DNA from: Escherichia phage JohannBuxtorf_Bas84
Sequence record: PQ850611.1
Direction: 5' to 3' (one strand)
Length of the DNA: 44,189 nucleotides
In this document: positions 1,948 to 33,157 of the stretch, in pieces
How the letters are laid out: every line of letters starts with the position of its first letter
Numbering within the stretch: position 1 is the first letter of the stretch
The notes under the pieces: generated by a model
Database searches by the model: none
The model's input: only the letters and a program-made list of their open reading frames with translations
What the model was told of the DNA's origin: nothing
Made by a program: the position numbers and the translations under genes

Positions 1948-3468
1948 ATGACCGTTAACGTTGACAACCAGCACCCGCTCTATGCGCGCATTGCGCCAGA
2001 GTGGAAGATGATCCGCGATTGTGTAGCAGGGGAGCGCGCCGTGAAGGCGTGCGGCCCTTTGTACCTGCCTCATCCCGCCAGTGGCGACAATACTGACCCG
2101 AAAGCACGGGCGCGGTATAAGGCGTACAAGCAACGCGCGGTATTCCTGAACGCCACCGCCCGCACACTAAACGCGCTGTTAGGCGTCGCCTTTGCAAAAC
2201 CTGTAAGTCTGGACCTTTCCGGGGCGATGGCTGACCTGATTGACGACGTAGACGGCAGCGGTATGCCATTGCCGCAACTTCTGCGCGGTGCTATGTCGGA
2301 AGTTCTGCAATCGGGACGCGCGGGCTTTATGGTGGATTACGACCGCCAGGCTAACTTTGATGAACTGGGTAACGTAGTGCCACAGACAGCCGCCGAGATG
2401 GCGGCACACCGACCGCTTATCCGCCTGTATACGGCAGAGCAGATCATCAACTGGCGGCAGACCCACGGCGTCGATACGCTAATTGTGCTGAAGGAAACGG
2501 ACGAAATCAGCACCGAAGACCCGGACGATTTCGCAAACCACGAAGTAACAATCTGGACCGAGCTTCGCATGATTGACGGCAAGGCACACGCCCGCCGCTG
2601 GTTTTACAACGCGGACACGTCCGAAGTGAAGATGGACTTGCCGCGAGGCTTCACCAGAACCGATCTTGTGCCGTTGGTGGATGCTTCCGGTAATGCGCTT
2701 ACGCAACTACCGTTTTGCTGGTGTGGCGCGGTGGACAACAACGCAACGCCTGACGCCGCTCCGCTGGCGGATATCGCATCCATCAACATTAAGCACTACA
2801 ACGCCGAAGCGGACGTCGCCGAGATTGCGCACATCGTGGGGCAACCTACCCTGGTGGCAACTGGCTTGACTCAATCATGGGCTGACAAGAACCTGAAGGG
2901 CGGCATCGCGCTCGGAGCGACTAAGGGCGTTATTCTGGGTCAGAACATGGACGCTAAACTGATTCAGGCCGAGGAGCGCAACTTGTCTGTTGCGCTGTGT
3001 GAGCGACGCGAATTGCAAATGGCTAAACTAGGCGCGGCCCTGGTTGAGAAGGGGACTGCACCTAAGACGGCAACGGAAGCGGCCTACGATGCGCAGACTG
3101 ATAACAGTATCCTGTCGCTTATTGCTGGTAACGTTGAGAAGGCTTTCAACCGCGCGCTGCAAATCGTCCAACTCTTCACCGGTGACACCGCCGACCAGCG
3201 TGTGACGCTGAATAAGTTCTACACCGAGATCACGGTTGATGCGCAGCTTATGACCGCGATGATGTCGGGTGTGCAGACTGGCACGGTCCGCCTGGCTGAT
3301 TTCATCAAGTGGATGATGGCGCAGGGCGTCATCGACGACTCGCAAACCGTCGAGCAGGTGGAAGACGAATTGCGAAATCAGAATCCATTGCCTCAAATGT
3401 CCCCCGATGCGGTAGAATCTACCGAAGAAGACCCGGACAAGGTAGCGGACAATGGCGAAGACAATTAA
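1948..3468 (+). CDS. portal protein
   Basis: 506 aa ORF directly after large terminase with RBS AGGAA; acidic C-terminus; synteny. Confidence 0.75.
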   Translation: MTVNVDNQHPLYARIAPEWKMIRDCVAGERAVKACGPLYLPHPASGDNTDPKARARYKAYKQRAVFLNATARTLNALLGVAFAKPVSLDLSGAMADLIDDVDGSGMPLPQLLRGAMSEVLQSGRAGFMVDYDRQANFDELGNVVPQTAAEMAAHRPLIRLYTAEQIINWRQTHGVDTLIVLKETDEISTEDPDDFANHEVTIWTELRMIDGKAHARRWFYNADTSEVKMDLPRGFTRTDLVPLVDASGNALTQLPFCWCGAVDNNATPDAAPLADIASINIKHYNAEADVAEIAHIVGQPTLVATGLTQSWADKNLKGGIALGATKGVILGQNMDAKLIQAEERNLSVALCERRELQMAKLGAALVEKGTAPKTATEAAYDAQTDNSILSLIAGNVEKAFNRALQIVQLFTGDTADQRVTLNKFYTEITVDAQLMTAMMSGVQTGTVRLADFIKWMMAQGVIDDSQTVEQVEDELRNQNPLPQMSPDAVESTEEDPDKVADNGEDN

Positions 3469-5790: not shown

Positions 5791-5814
5791 TGCAACCAAT
5801 ATAGTGCAACCAAT
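5791..5814. promoter_or_regulatory. tandem TGCAACCAAT motif pair in divergent intergenic region
   Basis: TGCAACCAAT at 5791-5800 and 5805-5814 (14-bp period) between divergent genes 5004-5768 (-) and 5918-6619 (+). Confidence 0.45.
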
Positions 5815-5917
5815 ACGAGGATTGCAAGCGAATTTTGCGATTATTTTTATCGCTGATAATATTAGAGGCGTGAAGTCGAGCGGGTGGCCTGCTCTGCCAC
5901 AATCCCAGGGGGATAGC

Positions 5918-11063: not shown

Positions 11064-11422
11064 TTGAGGCGGCGCGACGCTTTTATGGCCCGCCGCCACC
11101 CTCCGAAGATTTAGCCGCGAGTTTATGGGGTGCGGCCCCTGAAGATGTTTGTCCGCCTGTTGCGCTATGGCCCGACAACGCGAAGGTAGTCGCAGTCTTC
11201 ACAGATTGCTCCACGCAATGGCGCACCGGATTTGGTGGCGCATACGGCATCGACTACGGCGTGTTGGAGTGGTTATTTAAGATGCACGGTATCGAAAACG
11301 AGCAGCGCGCGTTTAAAGATATCAAGCTAACCCCCCCCCCCCAAAACTGCATATCTAATCACTTTCATTGCATAAACTCAAAGCGGGACAGGCGGGACGT
11401 CCCGTTTTGCCCCACCCCGTAA
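10701..11422 (+). CDS. tail assembly chaperone -1 frameshift product (gpGT-like); 3' end uncertain
   Basis: slippery site A AAA AAC at 11054-11060; the -1 frame is open with no Met-initiated ORF and encodes ...WPDNAKVVAVFTDCSTQWRTGFGGAYGIDYGVLEWLFKMHGIENEQRAFKDIKLT; reading frame then crosses a C12 homopolymer so the true C-terminus depends on tract length. Confidence 0.45.
11331..11342. repeat. poly-C homopolymer (12 nt)
   Basis: c x12 at 11331-11342 at the 3' end of the frameshift extension and immediately upstream of the CGGGACA repeat element. Confidence 0.9.
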
Positions 11423-11620
11423 ATGTGCATACCTATGCGGATTTCGTGCATAAACCAAACGGGACAAAAAGCGGGACAAACAAGGGGCGGGACAAAGCGG
11501 GACAGCACCCCGTCCCGCCAGTGCTGCCGCGGGTTTTCAGCCGATCGGGACAGCGGGACAGCACCCCAGTCTTTCAGACTAGACGGGGGTCAATGGCCCC
11601 CCTCGTCTGAGACTGAATAA
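11364..11620. repeat. structured non-coding element copy A: CGGGACA direct-repeat array plus 60-bp hairpin module
   Basis: 8 direct CGGGACA cores (11383, 11392, 11460, 11471, 11487, 11497, 11545, 11553), inverted GTCCCG at 11399 and 11512 forming dyads, then gcaccccagtctttcagactagacgggggtcaatggcccccctcgtctgagactgaataa (11561-11620) shared with copy B. Confidence 0.85.
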
Positions 11621-11683
11621 GGTTTGTTTGAAATTCGCTGATACAATGACAGTCGGCAACTGCATAAAAAAGGGGACTGCATA

Positions 11684-21755: not shown

Positions 21756-21835
21756 GGTATCATCTCCTATATTTGGTCGAGTTTTAGTATTACACCGCTC
21801 GATCAAGAATGCAACCAATTTACGAGGATTTAGCT

Positions 21836-24250: not shown

Positions 24251-24781
24251 TTATTTCAGTACGCCAGTCACCAGTGTTTTTTCCATGTTGCGGAAGTCTT
24301 CCGGCGTCATAAGTATTTTGGACCCATCTTCGCCGTGCAACGTAACCAGTGGTTTAGTTTTCACTAAAACACCCTCCGGCAGCTTCCACGCTTCGACAGT
24401 TTTCTTCACTGCTTCCCGGAAAGCGGTGGCAGCGATCTTGCCATCCAGCTTAACCGCTACGCCCTTCAGGCTGTCAAACTGTGCTGCCGTTGTGTCGATC
24501 TGGACCTCGTCGTGCACGGTGGCGTATGACTCACCCAGTAGAGCAGCATATGCCACTAAATCCACAATGTTATCTTCCTGGTGCTTACGGGTCTGGCGGA
24601 CCAGCTTCAGGCAAATCATGAAGACCCAGGCTTCTTGCTCGGTAAGGTCGCGACCGGTTAGCGCGTTGAATACGGCGGCAATCTGTTTCGCGCTGCGTTC
24701 TTCTTTGGTGTCATATCCATTTTCTTTTCCGCGCTGTTCCATAGTGGTGGCGGCGTTTTTGCAGTATTCGAATGCTTTCAT
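24251..24781 (-). CDS. hypothetical protein; N-terminal all-alpha module tentatively MazG-like nucleotide pyrophosphohydrolase
   Basis: 176 aa from ATG (MKAFEY...) with RBS AAGGAG; paired acidic motifs (KEERSAKQI, TEQEAW, HQEDNIVDL) reminiscent of MazG/HisE-type modules; assignment tentative. Confidence 0.45.
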   Translation of the reverse strand: MKAFEYCKNAATTMEQRGKENGYDTKEERSAKQIAAVFNALTGRDLTEQEAWVFMICLKLVRQTRKHQEDNIVDLVAYAALLGESYATVHDEVQIDTTAAQFDSLKGVAVKLDGKIAATAFREAVKKTVEAWKLPEGVLVKTKPLVTLHGEDGSKILMTPEDFRNMEKTLVTGVLK

Positions 24782-24843
24782 GGTTTGTCTCCTTTGAAGG
24801 GAGGCGGTATTGCCTCCCGATGTGGCTAATGTAATTGGTTGCA

Positions 24844-25314
24844 TTATTGGTTGCAAGTGAATTTTGCAAGATTCACTGAATAAATGTGCGGGACCAGTTC
24901 TTCGCACGCCCGTTTGATGGCGGCTATGTTCTTCGCGCAGTCGTCAATGATGACCAGTTCGTTAACATCTGCGTAGCACACCAGGCCAAATACGGAACGA
25001 GCTTTATATTCCGGCGGCGGGGTGTCATCCAGCATGTGGCGCAAGAACAGACGGCCTTTCGGGAATCGGTCTAATTGCTCTTTCGTTGTCTCCCAGCATT
25101 CAGACTGGCGGTTTGACAGGTACGCAATGTCGAAGCCCTGTTTAGCGTACATGCGCAATAACGGCAGCATGTCATAATTAATGTCTTCGCGGACGTGGGC
25201 CTTATGCCACTTCGCCCAAAACGTTGATTTAGTCTTGATCCCCGGAACTAGGTCGTCGCGCACACTGCTTGACCCGTTGATAACGCCATCTAAATCGCAA
25301 ATCAGTAGTTTCAT
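24844..25314 (-). CDS. HAD-superfamily phosphatase (5'-nucleotidase-like)
   Basis: 156 aa; N-terminal HAD motif I LICDLDGV; internal ...IIDD motif; ATGA coupling with upstream ORF. Confidence 0.6.
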   Translation of the reverse strand: MKLLICDLDGVINGSSSVRDDLVPGIKTKSTFWAKWHKAHVREDINYDMLPLLRMYAKQGFDIAYLSNRQSECWETTKEQLDRFPKGRLFLRHMLDDTPPPEYKARSVFGLVCYADVNELVIIDDCAKNIAAIKRACEELVPHIYSVNLAKFTCNQ

Positions 25315-25998: not shown

Positions 25999-26443
25999 GC
26001 TGCGGGTCCAGTGCGTAAAGTGGGATTTTCTTGTCGCTGGTCAGCACGCGTTTCAGTCGCTCTAATTCCTGCTCCCCTAGCGGACGTGAATCAGAATAGT
26101 AGCTGCCGTTTGCCCGCCACGCCATAAGCACCAGGTCTTTACGGTCGATCTTAGACTGGCGGCCTTTCGGGCGCACGTATTCCTCGGCCCGTTTGCAATG
26201 CTCGCGCAAACCTTCGGCAGTGATGCGGTTTAGGGCAACGCTGGTTGTATATCCGGTGCGCTGCATAATCCCCATCAATTCGAAAAGCAGTTCGAAGCGC
26301 TCCTCTAATTCCTTGCGCATCTTCTCCTCGCCTTCATAGCTTGCCAGGTAGGTATCAGCCAGCGCGTTCGCCCGTTCGGCTTGCTCTCGGGCTTCGAGGC
26401 ATTGCGCGGCCCAGTAATTTTTCTCTTCTTGTAAAATTTTCAT
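25985..26443 (-). CDS. hypothetical protein
   Basis: 152 aa; RBS GGAGA; charged helical N-terminal half; no recognised motif. Confidence 0.55.
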   Translation of the reverse strand: MKILQEEKNYWAAQCLEAREQAERANALADTYLASYEGEEKMRKELEERFELLFELMGIMQRTGYTTSVALNRITAEGLREHCKRAEEYVRPKGRQSKIDRKDLVLMAWRANGSYYSDSRPLGEQELERLKRVLTSDKKIPLYALDPQHDGE

Positions 26444-26460: not shown

Positions 26461-26488
26461 TTAAAAAGGGCGTCCAAACCGGACACCC
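26461..26488 (-). terminator. minus-strand hairpin plus U5 between motif pair and RBS of 25985-26443
   Basis: stem gggtgtcc/ggacgccc (one G-U) with 5-nt loop followed on the minus strand by TTTTT; lies between TGCAACCAAT pair (26498-26524) and the RBS. Confidence 0.5.
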
Positions 26489-26524
26489 TCAATATAATGC
26501 AACCAATCTAATTATGCAACCAAT

Positions 26525-26848: not shown

Positions 26849-27484
26849 TTTAAATTTTCCTCGTTAACCGCTATCGCGAAGCCGCGCGGAGTGAGCGACC
26901 GGATTAATTTTGTGCGGGCTGATTTGCCTCCGAGGCGACTATACTGCTTCGAGTACCCTTTTTCAACGAAAACGGGTTTCTTCTCTGGCATACGGAAGCC
27001 GTTGCCGGTCCATAAGCAGGTCAGCTTCGGATATGAATCGCGGGCGTTGATGTATTCCGGGAAGAGCGGGTGTACGTCATCCTCCGGCAGATATCCCCCA
27101 TACTCCCACGGGTCGAATGAGTGATCCGGTTTGCGCCACTGGGTGGATAGCACACTGCGCGGATTCTCAATCATATATGGCACTTCGAAGAAGTCACCCA
27201 GGTAAGCGGCGATCTTCGCGGTGCGCACCGCTCACTGCCAGATCCGTGCACGGAGGAAACGCATAGATGATATCTGGCGTACCGAAATCACCATTCATCG
27301 CACGGTCTACAAAGTCCAGATCGATAAACTCATTGCGATAGCGGATTCCGCGACCATAAATCCGGTAGTCAAGGTATGACCCGTGATCAGCTTCGGAGTA
27401 GTTGAAGCAATAACACTTATGCCCCATCTCGGCAGCACGCTCAATCATCAAGCCGCTGCCGTCAAACAATGACCAGATTATCAT
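26845..27484 (-). pseudogene. C5-cytosine DNA methyltransferase-like gene split by a frame disruption
   Basis: ORF 27194-27484 carries motif I-like LFDGSG and motif IV-like FPPCTDLAVSGA; ORF 26845-27228 (GTG start, other frame) carries motif VI-like ENP and C-terminal TPRGFAIAV; frames differ by +1 within 27197-27231. Confidence 0.5.
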
Positions 27485-29172: not shown

Positions 29173-29352
29173 TTATTTTTGTTCTTGTTCTGCGCGATAG
29201 CGGCGCTGCCGTTCGCGCTCTTTCTTATTGCGGCATGACTTGCACTCGGCCCGATGCCCGTCCGGGCTGCGCGCAGTCTTACCGGTGTATTTGTGGAACT
29301 GAGACAGCGGCTTGATGCAGCCACAATTACTACAACGTTTTTCTTCAATCAT
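29173..29352 (-). CDS. small zinc-ribbon protein
   Basis: 59 aa from ATG with RBS AGGA; two CxxC-type pairs (CSNCGC ... CKSC) and basic C-terminus. Confidence 0.45.
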   Translation of the reverse strand: MIEEKRCSNCGCIKPLSQFHKYTGKTARSPDGHRAECKSCRNKKERERQRRYRAEQEQK

Positions 29353-29392: not shown

Positions 29393-29671
29393 CTACGCGA
29401 CCAATTCAGCAACCAATAAATCACAGTCGGCTATGTTGTCGATGACGCGAACGTCAGCACCGCGGCGGACCATTCGTTCATGTTCACGTACCTGGTGCGG
29501 CTTCGGTTTCCCACCTGGGCGCTTCACTTCGACGAACACTATTTTGCCGTTGATGATAATAATCAGGTCGGGCGCACCTGCGCGCCCCTCCCATGCCAGT
29601 TTTCGGCAGAATCCCCCAACGGCTTTAACCAGCTTCATCAGGTGACTTTGTATCTTGCCTTCGGGTGTCAT
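29393..29671 (-). CDS. VRR-NUC domain nuclease
   Basis: 92 aa; PDLIII...VFVEVKRPGGKP matches the PD-(D/E)XK core of VRR-NUC proteins. Confidence 0.7.
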   Translation of the reverse strand: MTPEGKIQSHLMKLVKAVGGFCRKLAWEGRAGAPDLIIIINGKIVFVEVKRPGGKPKPHQVREHERMVRRGADVRVIDNIADCDLLVAELVA

Positions 29672-32380: not shown

Positions 32381-33157
32381 TTAACGGCGGCGACGTTTAC
32401 GTGGTGCTTCGTCTTCGTCGTCTTCGTCCTCATCTTCGTCATCGCGTGGTTTACGACGTTTACGTGGTGCTTCGTCTTCGTCGTCGCCATCGCGGCGCTT
32501 GGATTTCTTGGACTTGCGCGGCTTGTCATCATCATCGTCATCACGACGTTTTGACTTCTTAGCCTTGCGCGGTGCTTCGTCTTCGTCGTCGTTGTCCAGG
32601 TCTTCATCGGAGCAAGAAGACCCGCCACCGCCGAAGGCTTCACCGTCATCACGGAAGCGTAAACCCAGCAAGCCAGCACCGAGTCCCTTGCCGTTGGTGT
32701 TGTTCCACGCCCAAATATCAATGGACACGTTGCAATAACAACCAGAGTAGATCTCCTGGCCTTCGATCTCGTCGCCTTCAACGGTCAGACCTTGTTCCGT
32801 CTGCTTCTCGCCGAGTGACGTTTGAATGATCGGCTGTTTGAACGATTTGGCGTTGATGTACAACATGCCTTCGAATTCTTCGGTTACTTCGTCGCGCTCG
32901 TCACCGTCGCGAACTGCGCATTCCTTAGAATCCTGGGCGTAGTGGCGGTCCATCCACTTATCAGCATTCTTCTCGGATTTCAGCTTGTCGGTGAGCACTG
33001 CGCGCGCTGCCGCTTCCACTTTGTCCACCTGCGGATCTTCTTTATCCAGAAGAATCACGGCACGGTATGCCGGTTTTTGCCCATCCTGTTTAGGGGTATC
33101 ACGTTCCCAAATTTTCAGGAAACATACGCGCACATTTTTCAGGTTGACTTTCGCCAT
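32381..33157 (-). CDS. DUF2815-like protein (putative ssDNA-binding) with repetitive acidic/basic C-terminal tail
   Basis: 258 aa from ATG (MAKVNLKNVRV...) with RBS GAGGAA; adjacent to Cas4-like nuclease and DNA polymerase; C-terminal repeats of DDEDEAPRK(A/R)KK. Confidence 0.5.
   Translation of the reverse strand: MAKVNLKNVRVCFLKIWERDTPKQDGQKPAYRAVILLDKEDPQVDKVEAAARAVLTDKLKSEKNADKWMDRHYAQDSKECAVRDGDERDEVTEEFEGMLYINAKSFKQPIIQTSLGEKQTEQGLTVEGDEIEGQEIYSGCYCNVSIDIWAWNNTNGKGLGAGLLGLRFRDDGEAFGGGGSSCSDEDLDNDDEDEAPRKAKKSKRRDDDDDDKPRKSKKSKRRDGDDEDEAPRKRRKPRDDEDEDEDDEDEAPRKRRRR

Follow-up and report, generated by a model that had tools for sequence, protein, structure and literature searches.

We analysed a 44,189-nt stretch of Escherichia phage JohannBuxtorf_Bas84 (PQ850611.1), here called the window, for an 8-bp motif that reads GCAACCAA in one orientation and TTGGTTGC in the other, and for the hairpins that follow pairs of this motif at three gene junctions, named (a), (b) and (c). 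A 10-kb stretch around junction (a) showed 88-93% identity to about 160 phage records, nearly all of them Escherichia Dhillonvirus (HK578, SSL-2009a, SO-1 and several BASEL phages). Judged by size and gene order, which match whole genomes of this group, the window is a near-complete genome of the genus Dhillonvirus (HK578-like). A gene map drawn from the list of open reading frames (ORFs) and from annotated relatives, with 6.7% of the window as intergenic DNA, has the following layout:

1 to ~23.6 kb, plus strand: structural genes
~36.1 kb down to 23.66 kb, minus strand: leftward DNA-metabolism block, 12.5 kb
36086-36307: divergent early promoter region
Downstream of 36307, plus strand: rightward block with the gene of a 109-amino-acid (aa) protein, the primase-helicase gene and onward to the lysis genes

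Rfam and tRNA scans of the window gave zero matches. The literature searched for the motif string, Dhillonvirus and HK578 promoters, intergenic elements and transcriptomes contained no description of the motif or of a Dhillonvirus transcription programme, and no Dhillonvirus transcriptome data.

The initial annotation had described a motif pair, a hairpin, a ribosome-binding site (RBS) and a start codon in this order at three junctions of the leftward block, and all three read as described on the minus strand. It had also placed the motif in the last codons of the VRR-NUC gene; a pair is indeed present there at 29397-29416, one copy being TTGGTCGC. The elements of these four sites are:

24854-24847, minus strand: junction (a), upstream copy GCAACCAA, which with the preceding TT makes the -35 box TTGCAA (24856-24851)
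24842-24835, minus strand: junction (a), second copy GCAACCAA, in the spacer, ending 1 nt before the -10 box TACATT (24833-24828)
~24821, minus strand: junction (a), predicted transcription start, with the Shine-Dalgarno sequence AAGGAG at 24794-24789 and the ATG at 24781
24818-24799, minus strand: hairpin (a), GGGAGGC-aatacc-GCCTCCC, 7 bp, no U-tract, starting about 3 nt after the predicted start
26523-26491, minus strand: junction (b) promoter, TTGGTTGC (26523-26516), N9, TTGGTTGC (26506-26499), 'at', -10 box TATATT (26496-26491)
26488-26468, minus strand: hairpin (b), GGGTGTCC-ggttt-GGACGCCC, GC-rich stem of 8-10 bp and 5-nt loop, followed by T5 at 26467-26463 (element 26463-26490)
33251-33214, minus strand: junction (c) promoter, -35 box TTGACC (33251-33246), GCAACCAA in the spacer (33237-33230), -10 box TAGATT (33228-33223)
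33207-33185, minus strand: hairpin (c), CGGGGT-N11-ACCCCG, 6-bp stem, 11-nt loop, no U-tract, about 9 nt into the transcript
29416-29384, minus strand: promoter at the VRR-NUC 3' end, TTGGTTGC (29416-29409), 'tgaa', TTGGTCGC (29404-29397), 7 variable nt, -10 box TATAGT (29389-29384)

The window holds 21 exact copies of the motif against 1.9 expected, a number reached in none of 100 shuffles. Sixteen of them overlap intergenic DNA and two more lie in the last codons of genes; the remaining three are deep in coding sequence, which is about the chance number. Twelve copies are on the plus and nine on the minus strand, and with this unbiased split a Chi-like or strand-biased role was dropped. Alignment of all copies widened the core only to aTTGGTTGCa, showed no dyad and left little information in the flanks; a following ACCAA, giving TTGGT-N5-ACCAA, was present in only two copies. 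The motif is spread over the genome beyond the leftward operon (also at 5792/5806, 21811, 36110, 38979/39014, 39296, 39387/39418, 40127 and 42528/42551), and the further sites with a promoter-like setting are:

36131-36102, minus strand: strongest leftward early promoter, TTGACA-18-TATTAT, single motif (36117-36110) in the spacer, separated from the -10 box by 2 nt; score 15.3, rank 1
5827-5792, minus strand: promoter of the Nmad5 gene, TTGCAA-18-TATATT, with one motif in the spacer (5813-5806) and one over the -10 box and start (5799-5792)
42521-42558, plus strand: promoter TTGACT-18-CATACT directly past a terminator hairpin, with motifs just after the -35 box (42528-42535) and just after the -10 box (42551-42558)
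39387-39425, plus strand: promoter TTGCAT-17-TAGATT (39391), the first motif providing the -35 box and the second overlapping the -10 box and start
40125-40153, plus strand: promoter-like TTGCAA-17-TACATT within a coding region, with one motif (40127-40134), present in the four relatives checked
21811-21818, plus strand: one motif copy where the lipoprotein and tail-fibre genes diverge, with a leftward reading TTGCAT-17-AATACT

The ranks refer to a position-weight sigma-70 scan of both strands, from which the best 27 sites of the genome were taken. Ten of these 27 touch a motif, with 0.6 expected and ten reached in none of 20,000 random trials; nine of the ten point at the downstream gene, the tenth being an opposite-strand reading at 42528-42558. 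The promoters in the leftward block read TTGCAA-17-TACATT at (a), TTGCAT-17-TATATT at (b), TTGACC-17-TAGATT at (c) and TTGCTG-17-TATAGT at 29412 (ranks 14, 7, 3 and 27; scores of 12.6 for (b), 13.7 for (c) and 10.6 for 29412), and all four aim at the next gene, with its ATG 40-70 nt downstream. At (a) the stop codon TAA of the HAD gene (24846-24844) lies inside the 4-nt gap that separates the two motif copies. The first copy at (b) provides the -35 box TTGCAT (26519-26514), and the ATG is at 26443. At (c) a second GCAACCAA (33221-33214) lies over the predicted start, the two copies flank TAGATT and the ATG is at 33157. The pair at 29412 is in the last codons of the VRR-NUC gene, with no hairpin before the ATG at 29348. 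Hexamers near TTGACA and TATAAT (the latter with A at position 2 and T at position 6), 16-18 bp spacing, orientation and conservation at (a), (b), (c) and 29412 are those of sigma-70-type promoters. On this evidence each motif pair sits within a sigma-70-type internal promoter driving the next gene, with transcription starts that we infer from the hexamers. Internal promoters were one of the functions put forward in the initial annotation, and this proposal stands, as the pairs overlap conserved -35 and -10 boxes that lie 17-18 bp apart and face the gene downstream.

Relative to the predicted starts, motif copies fall at -22..-14 (seven promoters), -39..-32 (five), -8..+3 (four) and -34..-26 (three), and all four classes lie within the footprint of RNA polymerase (about -39 to +3). 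Most copies are upstream of the predicted start and hence not transcribed from their own promoter. Both orientations relative to transcription occur; (b) and the 29417 site are opposite to (a) and (c). Of the three strongest early promoters, two, 36248(+) and 36235(-), carry no motif; nor is there one in the cores of the predicted late promoters at 44092 (before the terminase genes) and ~5834 (before the scaffold gene).

For conservation, 12 complete Dhillonvirus genomes and several IMG/VR contigs were compared with every junction anchored on its downstream gene, which gave 10-17 sequences per site. With junction (a) excluded, 2 of 88 motif columns were variable versus 156 of 475 other intergenic columns. 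The -35 boxes, -10 boxes and motif copies were invariant, or the -10 box was changed at tolerated positions only, and the nucleotides between them varied. At junction (c) the -35 box and both motif copies were invariant in 17 sequences, the -10 box differing only at its third base (TAG/TAA/TAC-ATT). Junction (b) has TATATT or TATCTT as -10 box, and phage PaulFeyerabend carries three motif copies there, one every 17 bp. The site at 29412 was invariant in both copies and in TATAGT, with 7 variable nt between them, and the arrangement was also found in a 75%-identical relative (L003) with a different upstream coding sequence. At 5792..5827 the leftward reading of the -10 box was invariant across relatives and the rightward reading was not. 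HK578 retains the motif.

Junction (a) is the site at which the motif changes its orientation. Both copies read GCAACCAA in the window and in phages TH11 and TH13 (GCAACCAA-taat-GCAACCAA), the second is inverted in most relatives (GCAACCAA-tagg-TTGGTTGC-ac-TATAGT), and L003, with a different upstream gene, has TTGGTTGC-N9-TTGGTTGC-ac-TATATT. The proximal copy always ends 1-2 nt before the -10 box; its place is kept and its orientation flips. Several loci, in several genomes, share the string TTGGTTGC-ac-TATA(T/G)T. It is precisely at junctions (a) and (b) that relatives have different upstream genes. The motif being kept where the upstream gene differs (L003 at junction (a) and at 29417) bears out a role at the nucleic-acid level rather than in protein coding, as had been proposed. 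With both orientations in use and most copies untranscribed from their own promoter, the motif points to a protein-binding site in the DNA and not to an RNA signal, and the copies in spacers or over starts have no known polymerase contact, which makes an operator the natural reading.

Outside these relatives, IMG/VR was scanned for the tandem motif and for a string of motif and -10 box, which brought up mostly chance matches and coding tandem repeats, and loci fetched by way of the SSB protein numbered 5 only, with low-complexity acidic peptide patterns dominating. One unrelated IMG/VR contig (L113, 56% GC) contains about 12 exact copies and variants of cTAATTGGTTGCATCC in both orientations within 500 bp (2700-3260); the cluster ends at TGGTTGCATggTATAGT, and the locus has no homologue of the Dhillonvirus helix-turn-helix (HTH) protein that is described below.

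The hairpins differ from one another in shape, stability and conservation. Compared with shuffled sequence, fold stability was most significant for hairpin (a) (z -3.4), followed by (b) (z -2.5) and (c) (z -0.7). Hairpin (a) was kept in all relatives (13 distinct sequences) with differing stems (GGGAGGC/GCCTCCC, GGGGGC/GCCCCC, GGGGC/GCCCC); the stem of hairpin (c) was invariant with a variable loop. Only hairpin (b) has the form of an intrinsic terminator (stem of at least 5 bp, loop of 3-8 nt, at least 4-5 U), with its GC-rich 8-10 bp stem, 5-nt loop and U5. Hairpins (a) and (c) differ from such terminators in having no U-tract: the stem of (a) is followed by TTCAAAGG, that of (c), with its loop of 11 nt, by ATACATG, and neither was called by a terminator scan. 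Hairpin (b) starts 2 nt past the -10 box, and the predicted start at ~26484 (7 nt downstream of the -10 box) is within its 5' arm. Among about ten motif-bearing promoter regions only (a), (b) and (c) are followed by a hairpin; the sites at 29412, 36131, 5827, 39391 and 42521 have none before the RBS, and terminator-shaped hairpins without a motif are present at 35393-35374 and 29165-29149. The three hairpins are thus heterogeneous, have no common sequence and are not one recurrent element, and the order of motif and hairpin is no obligate module. What remains of the recurrent architecture proposed earlier is the order at three junctions, with unlike hairpins, a weak one at (c), a reversed motif at (b) and most motif promoters hairpin-free. 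The attenuators suggested with it find a match in the terminator shape of hairpin (b) and do not fit (a) and (c).

In phage TH13 (24961-25420) a 93-codon ORF is inserted between the promoter of junction (a) and the usual downstream gene. A hairpin cassette of about 28 bp (aaccacatcGGGAGGCaatacyGCCTCCC) stands on both sides of this ORF, and the promoter with its motif pair precedes the first copy only. The second cassette copy, apart from the motif, implies that hairpin (a) travels with gene cassettes and not with the motif.

That motif and hairpin jointly form an RNA signal for processing, attenuation or antitermination, as the initial annotation also considered, is hardly credible. The order of stop codon, motif, hairpin and RBS at three junctions and the terminator shape of (b) speak for it; the motif is reversed at (b) relative to (a) and (c) and flips between relatives at (a), most motif sites are hairpin-free, and the three hairpins lack a common sequence. 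RNA processing is further disfavoured by the copies that are untranscribed from their own promoter and by the stems of 6-10 bp, too short for RNase III sites of the T7 early type, in which an imperfect duplex extends over at least some 20 bp and is interrupted by an internal loop. Antitermination sites such as lambda nut or HK022 put need boxA and boxB or paired put stem-loops in a fixed RNA orientation. No boxA-like sequence (CGCTCTTA-like, at most one mismatch) was detected near the three hairpins on the minus strand, no Rfam family matched and the orientation of the motif is not fixed.

A more distant relative helped to delimit the conserved unit. The 25-kb Logan contig L258 has the gene order of the window; its primase-helicase is 67% identical to that of the window, and it encodes a protein (P0025) about 45% identical to the Dhillonvirus HTH protein. 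P0025 was found on this Logan contig and not in IMG/VR, JGI metagenomes, GTDB genomes or GenBank phages. GCAACCAA also heads the over-represented intergenic 8-mers of L258, where 20 kb contain 12 copies, 10 of which are intergenic. The first leftward promoter reads TTGACG-N8-GCAACCAA-tc-TAATAT, a layout as at 36131 of the window, and TTGACG-N8-GCAACCAA-t-TACATT stands before the SSB gene. Past a terminator the contig has TTGACG-t-GCAACCAA-N9-TATAGT, and before a (b)-like junction TTGGTTGC-N5-TTGGTTGC. A stem as in hairpin (b) begins 3 nt past the -10 box there, and the stem of hairpin (c) is also present with a different loop. Because several L258 promoters have one motif copy where the window has two, the conserved unit, as far as these sequences indicate, is one motif within a promoter core and not the tandem pair. 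At 9240-9260 of L258 the motif is found between Shine-Dalgarno sequence and start codon (aggagtGCAACCAATG), directly past a terminator-like hairpin and with no obvious promoter.

A candidate for the protein that binds the motif is encoded next to the divergent early region:

36308-36637, plus strand: candidate regulator, 109 aa, opening the rightward early operon in front of the 754-aa primase-helicase

In a Pfam scan of 20 small non-structural ORFs, this protein gave the only DNA-binding match (HTH_23, Sigma70_r4_2 and HTH_28; residues 65-105). PHROGs labels it 'transposase', and this annotation, like that as 'nuclease inhibitor gamma', is probably wrong. An AlphaFold2 (AF2) model with a predicted local distance difference test (pLDDT) score of 86 consists of a 59-residue helix (residues 21-79) followed by a two-helix C-terminal HTH. 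When the PDB was searched with this model by Foldseek, the matches were confined to generic HTH domains of LuxR, resolvase and IS3 type, all with E > 0.8 and none significant. An alignment of 15 variants showed residues 47-106 to be almost invariant and the N-terminal 45 residues to be freely replaced. Homologues are restricted to Dhillonvirus-like phages, and a profile search of 1.84 billion representative proteins yielded only three full-length relatives, P0025 among them. The HK578 homologue is 44% identical overall and retains GINxST(V/I)RxW in the putative recognition helix. The gene is driven by a strong predicted promoter without a motif (36248, TTGACA-17-TAGTTT). By domain content, model and distribution, this coiled-coil-plus-HTH protein is the most likely binder of the motif. 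In HK578, escapers of the OLD defence were isolated, and gp45 (the HTH homologue) and gp46 (helicase-primase) were grouped as a replication-initiation operon; gp45 was given no function (preprint 10.64898/2026.07.10.737580).

In HK578 (35575-36550, corresponding to 36308-37200 of the window) the HTH gene has been exchanged along with the N-terminal ~180 residues of the primase-helicase, the rest of the helicase being ~97% identical to that of the window. The two parts swapped as one module may interact.

Taken together, we hold with moderate confidence that the motif is a double-stranded DNA operator placed in sigma-70 promoter cores, likely bound by the 109-aa HTH protein, with Cro-like occlusion as the most likely effect and with the hairpins as separate elements. 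Sigma-70 promoters at 36131, 33251, 29412, 26519 and 24856 would cut the leftward operon into units, with leaky or conditional terminators between some of them, and the motif would be an operator built into these internal promoters and most other non-structural promoters of the phage. The 109-aa protein, made from its motif-less early promoter, would accumulate and then occlude RNA polymerase at the motif promoters. Early and middle transcription would thereby be turned down in a Cro-like manner. With copies of the motif inside promoter cores and in both orientations, occlusion would be the simplest way to act; granted an operator, we see the case for repression by occlusion as evenly balanced, with activation as its main rival. 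The motif-less cores of the late promoters (44092, ~5834) fit an early-to-late switch and are no proof of it.

The hairpins would act in different ways. At (b), transcripts arriving from upstream would fold the full terminator with its U5, and those from the internal promoter would start in the 5' arm and escape it. From this geometry we infer a terminator nested directly past a -10 box so that only upstream transcripts meet it, an arrangement of which we know no documented case. Hairpin (a), within about 3 nt of the predicted 5' end, would place a stem-loop right at the start of the new transcript. Such stem-loops are known to slow 5'-end-dependent mRNA decay, and the geometry is that of ompA-type leaders, in which a stem-loop at the 5' end protects the mRNA from such decay. 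Hairpin (c) is a weak stem-loop of uncertain significance. The combined picture, in which a genus-specific HTH protein is a global Cro-like timer acting on single asymmetric 8-bp sites, set in either orientation within the spacer or at the start of almost all early and middle sigma-70 promoters of a virulent siphophage, and at least one internal promoter is insulated by a nested terminator, is a tentative one that we consider rather doubtful as a whole.

Among known systems the operators OR and OL of lambda with Cro and CI are the closest in kind: they too are short conserved sites repeated inside or overlapping sigma-70 early promoters, with a small HTH gene beside a divergent early region, and the expected effect, as with lambda Cro, is a turn-down of early transcription in lytic growth. 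They differ in being 17-bp dyads bound by symmetric dimers at two loci. The sites described here are asymmetric, 8-10 bp long, single or paired at 12-35 bp, in either orientation and distributed over about ten promoters round the genome; the phage has no recognisable lysogeny module and binding is only predicted. Overlap with the core promoter agrees with dyad-symmetric operators of the Cro/CI or LacI type, and the 14-20 bp inverted repeat of that type is missing.

Several points weigh against an operator under a dedicated repressor. The motif contains TTG and provides the -35 box (TTGCAn) at several promoters, which inflates the promoter scores, and this role could explain the conservation of those copies without an extra protein; the -10 boxes and the spacing are independent of a -35 box supplied by the motif. 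In a simple consensus scan of the window for promoters and terminators, promoter-like sites were not enriched overall, and (a) and (b) went unrecognised. Paired motifs stand 12-35 bp apart and out of helical phase, which speaks against simple cooperative binding of dimers. The HTH protein adjoins the primase-helicase, so its target could be the origin instead of promoters, and a repressor that acts on almost every non-structural promoter of a virulent phage is no more than plausible. As to the hairpins, the covariation of (a) is thin (a formal count of one compensatory pair, changed in two sequences), and (c) is no more stable than shuffled sequence.

The motif might instead be a positive element, with a phage factor (the HTH protein or another) activating host polymerase at 'middle' promoters or re-targeting it to them, and with hairpins and terminators silencing downstream genes until then. 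We regard this as unlikely. The absence of the motif from the early promoters 36248(+) and 36235(-) and its presence at downstream internal promoters would suit an activator; hairpins of terminator shape at 35393 and (b) might keep early transcripts from reading through, and by Pfam the HTH resembles region 4 of sigma-70. Copies at -22..-14 and -8..+3, however, are where a bound protein normally blocks polymerase, the promoters are already equipped with good -35 boxes at a distance of 17-18 bp from the -10 box, and the strongest early promoter (36131) also has the motif. The middle promoters of T4 with MotA and AsiA are comparable in their short phage-specific motif in sigma-70-type promoters with a good -10 box. 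The MotA box, however, has a fixed position (about -30) and orientation and replaces the -35 box, whereas here a -35 box is present, position and orientation vary, and the orientation flips at one site. No MotA or AsiA family match was found by Pfam among the 20 ORFs scanned.

We also considered that a host protein binds the motif, or that the motif is an extended promoter consensus from duplicated promoter cassettes with no dedicated regulator. The cassettes are mosaic and re-used, as the recurrent string TTGGTTGC-ac-TATA(T/G)T shows, and one orientation of the motif provides TTGCAn as -35 box. Yet the copies in spacers and at start sites, where no sigma-70 polymerase contact is known, are as invariant as the hexamers, and the motif persists in a relative with ~45-67% protein identity, where neutral similarity would have decayed, which makes this explanation quite improbable. 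Sites of CytR (GTTGCATT), PdhR (ATTGGT-N3-ACCAAT) and FNR, as we take them to be, each resemble part of the motif with a mismatch in conserved positions or spacing; resemblances to what we assume to be MarA and sigma-54 sites were set aside for the same mismatch.

A role in replication or recombination was weighed against other repeats of the phage. Five motif copies are clustered in a repeat-rich region past the primase-helicase gene. Within this region, at 39040-39235, GCGGGACA occurs in six direct copies together with inverted copies, and an iteron segment of about 200 bp is duplicated (~80-85% identity) between the tail-chaperone and tape-measure genes (11064-11683) in every Dhillonvirus checked. 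These GCGGGACA repeats are probably origin-type iterons. A 754-aa primase-helicase with octamer iterons in two genome regions presumably resembles the P4 alpha-type system with its ori and crr; by eye we take the C-terminus of the enzyme to be winged-helix-like. The likeness to P4 concerns the GCGGGACA iterons only, the promoter motif being a different sequence that is stable in L258. The iteron of L258 is GGGGTGCCA in place of GCGGGACA and the promoter motif is unchanged there, which fits, as circumstantial evidence, iterons belonging to the primase-helicase and a motif belonging to the conserved HTH protein. The chance that the motif is a loading site for the primase-helicase by way of the HTH protein, or a boundary for module exchange, appears slim. 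The clustered copies, the upstream genes that differ between relatives exactly at (a) and (b), and the joint divergence of the HTH gene and the first ~180 primase-helicase residues in HK578 are in its favour; elsewhere, however, the copies coincide with promoter cores and not with arbitrary module boundaries, the iterons are the better origin candidate, and 8 bp are too few for homologous exchange.

An operator in promoter cores, as favoured here, would be an undescribed instance of familiar phage control and no new principle, embedded operators, intercistronic terminators and leader stem-loops being standard. Dhillonviruses (SECphi18, HK578, BASEL Bas14-Bas18 and others) are used in current studies of E. 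coli defence systems. About ten promoters with one operator-like motif and a single candidate regulator offer a testable model of temporal control in the genus, and the motif promoters are compact cassettes for phage engineering.

Further promoters and palindromes were seen in the window. The second-best promoter match of the genome, TTGAAA-17-TATAGT (26938-26966, minus strand), is motif-free and falls within the C5-methyltransferase gene. About 20 nt past the early promoter TTGAAA-17-AATAAT (36235-36207, minus strand) there is a hairpin, AGCGCCGG-N12-CGGCGCT, with T10 (region 36140-36235); the predicted transcript is only about 60 nt long (a tiny ORF or small RNA), and the layout is repeated in L258. 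The leader of the scaffold gene contains the hairpin GAGCGGG-tggc-CTGCTC (5880-5900), which gives another order of promoter, hairpin and RBS with a motif-free promoter core, and HK578 and B2 have AAGCGGG...CCGCTT, a compensatory change. An inverted repeat, TTGGTCGAG...CTCGATCAA, is present at 21770-21812 in the divergent region before the tail-fibre gene; relatives have TTGGTTGAG...CTCAACCAG, again a compensatory change, and the arms resemble the motif with 1-2 mismatches. At 35374-35393 (minus strand) the terminator-like hairpin GGCCCGC-loop-GCGGGCC has, depending on the genome, either TAATCT or the exact reverse complement AGATTA as its loop, the signature of an inversion of the whole palindrome.

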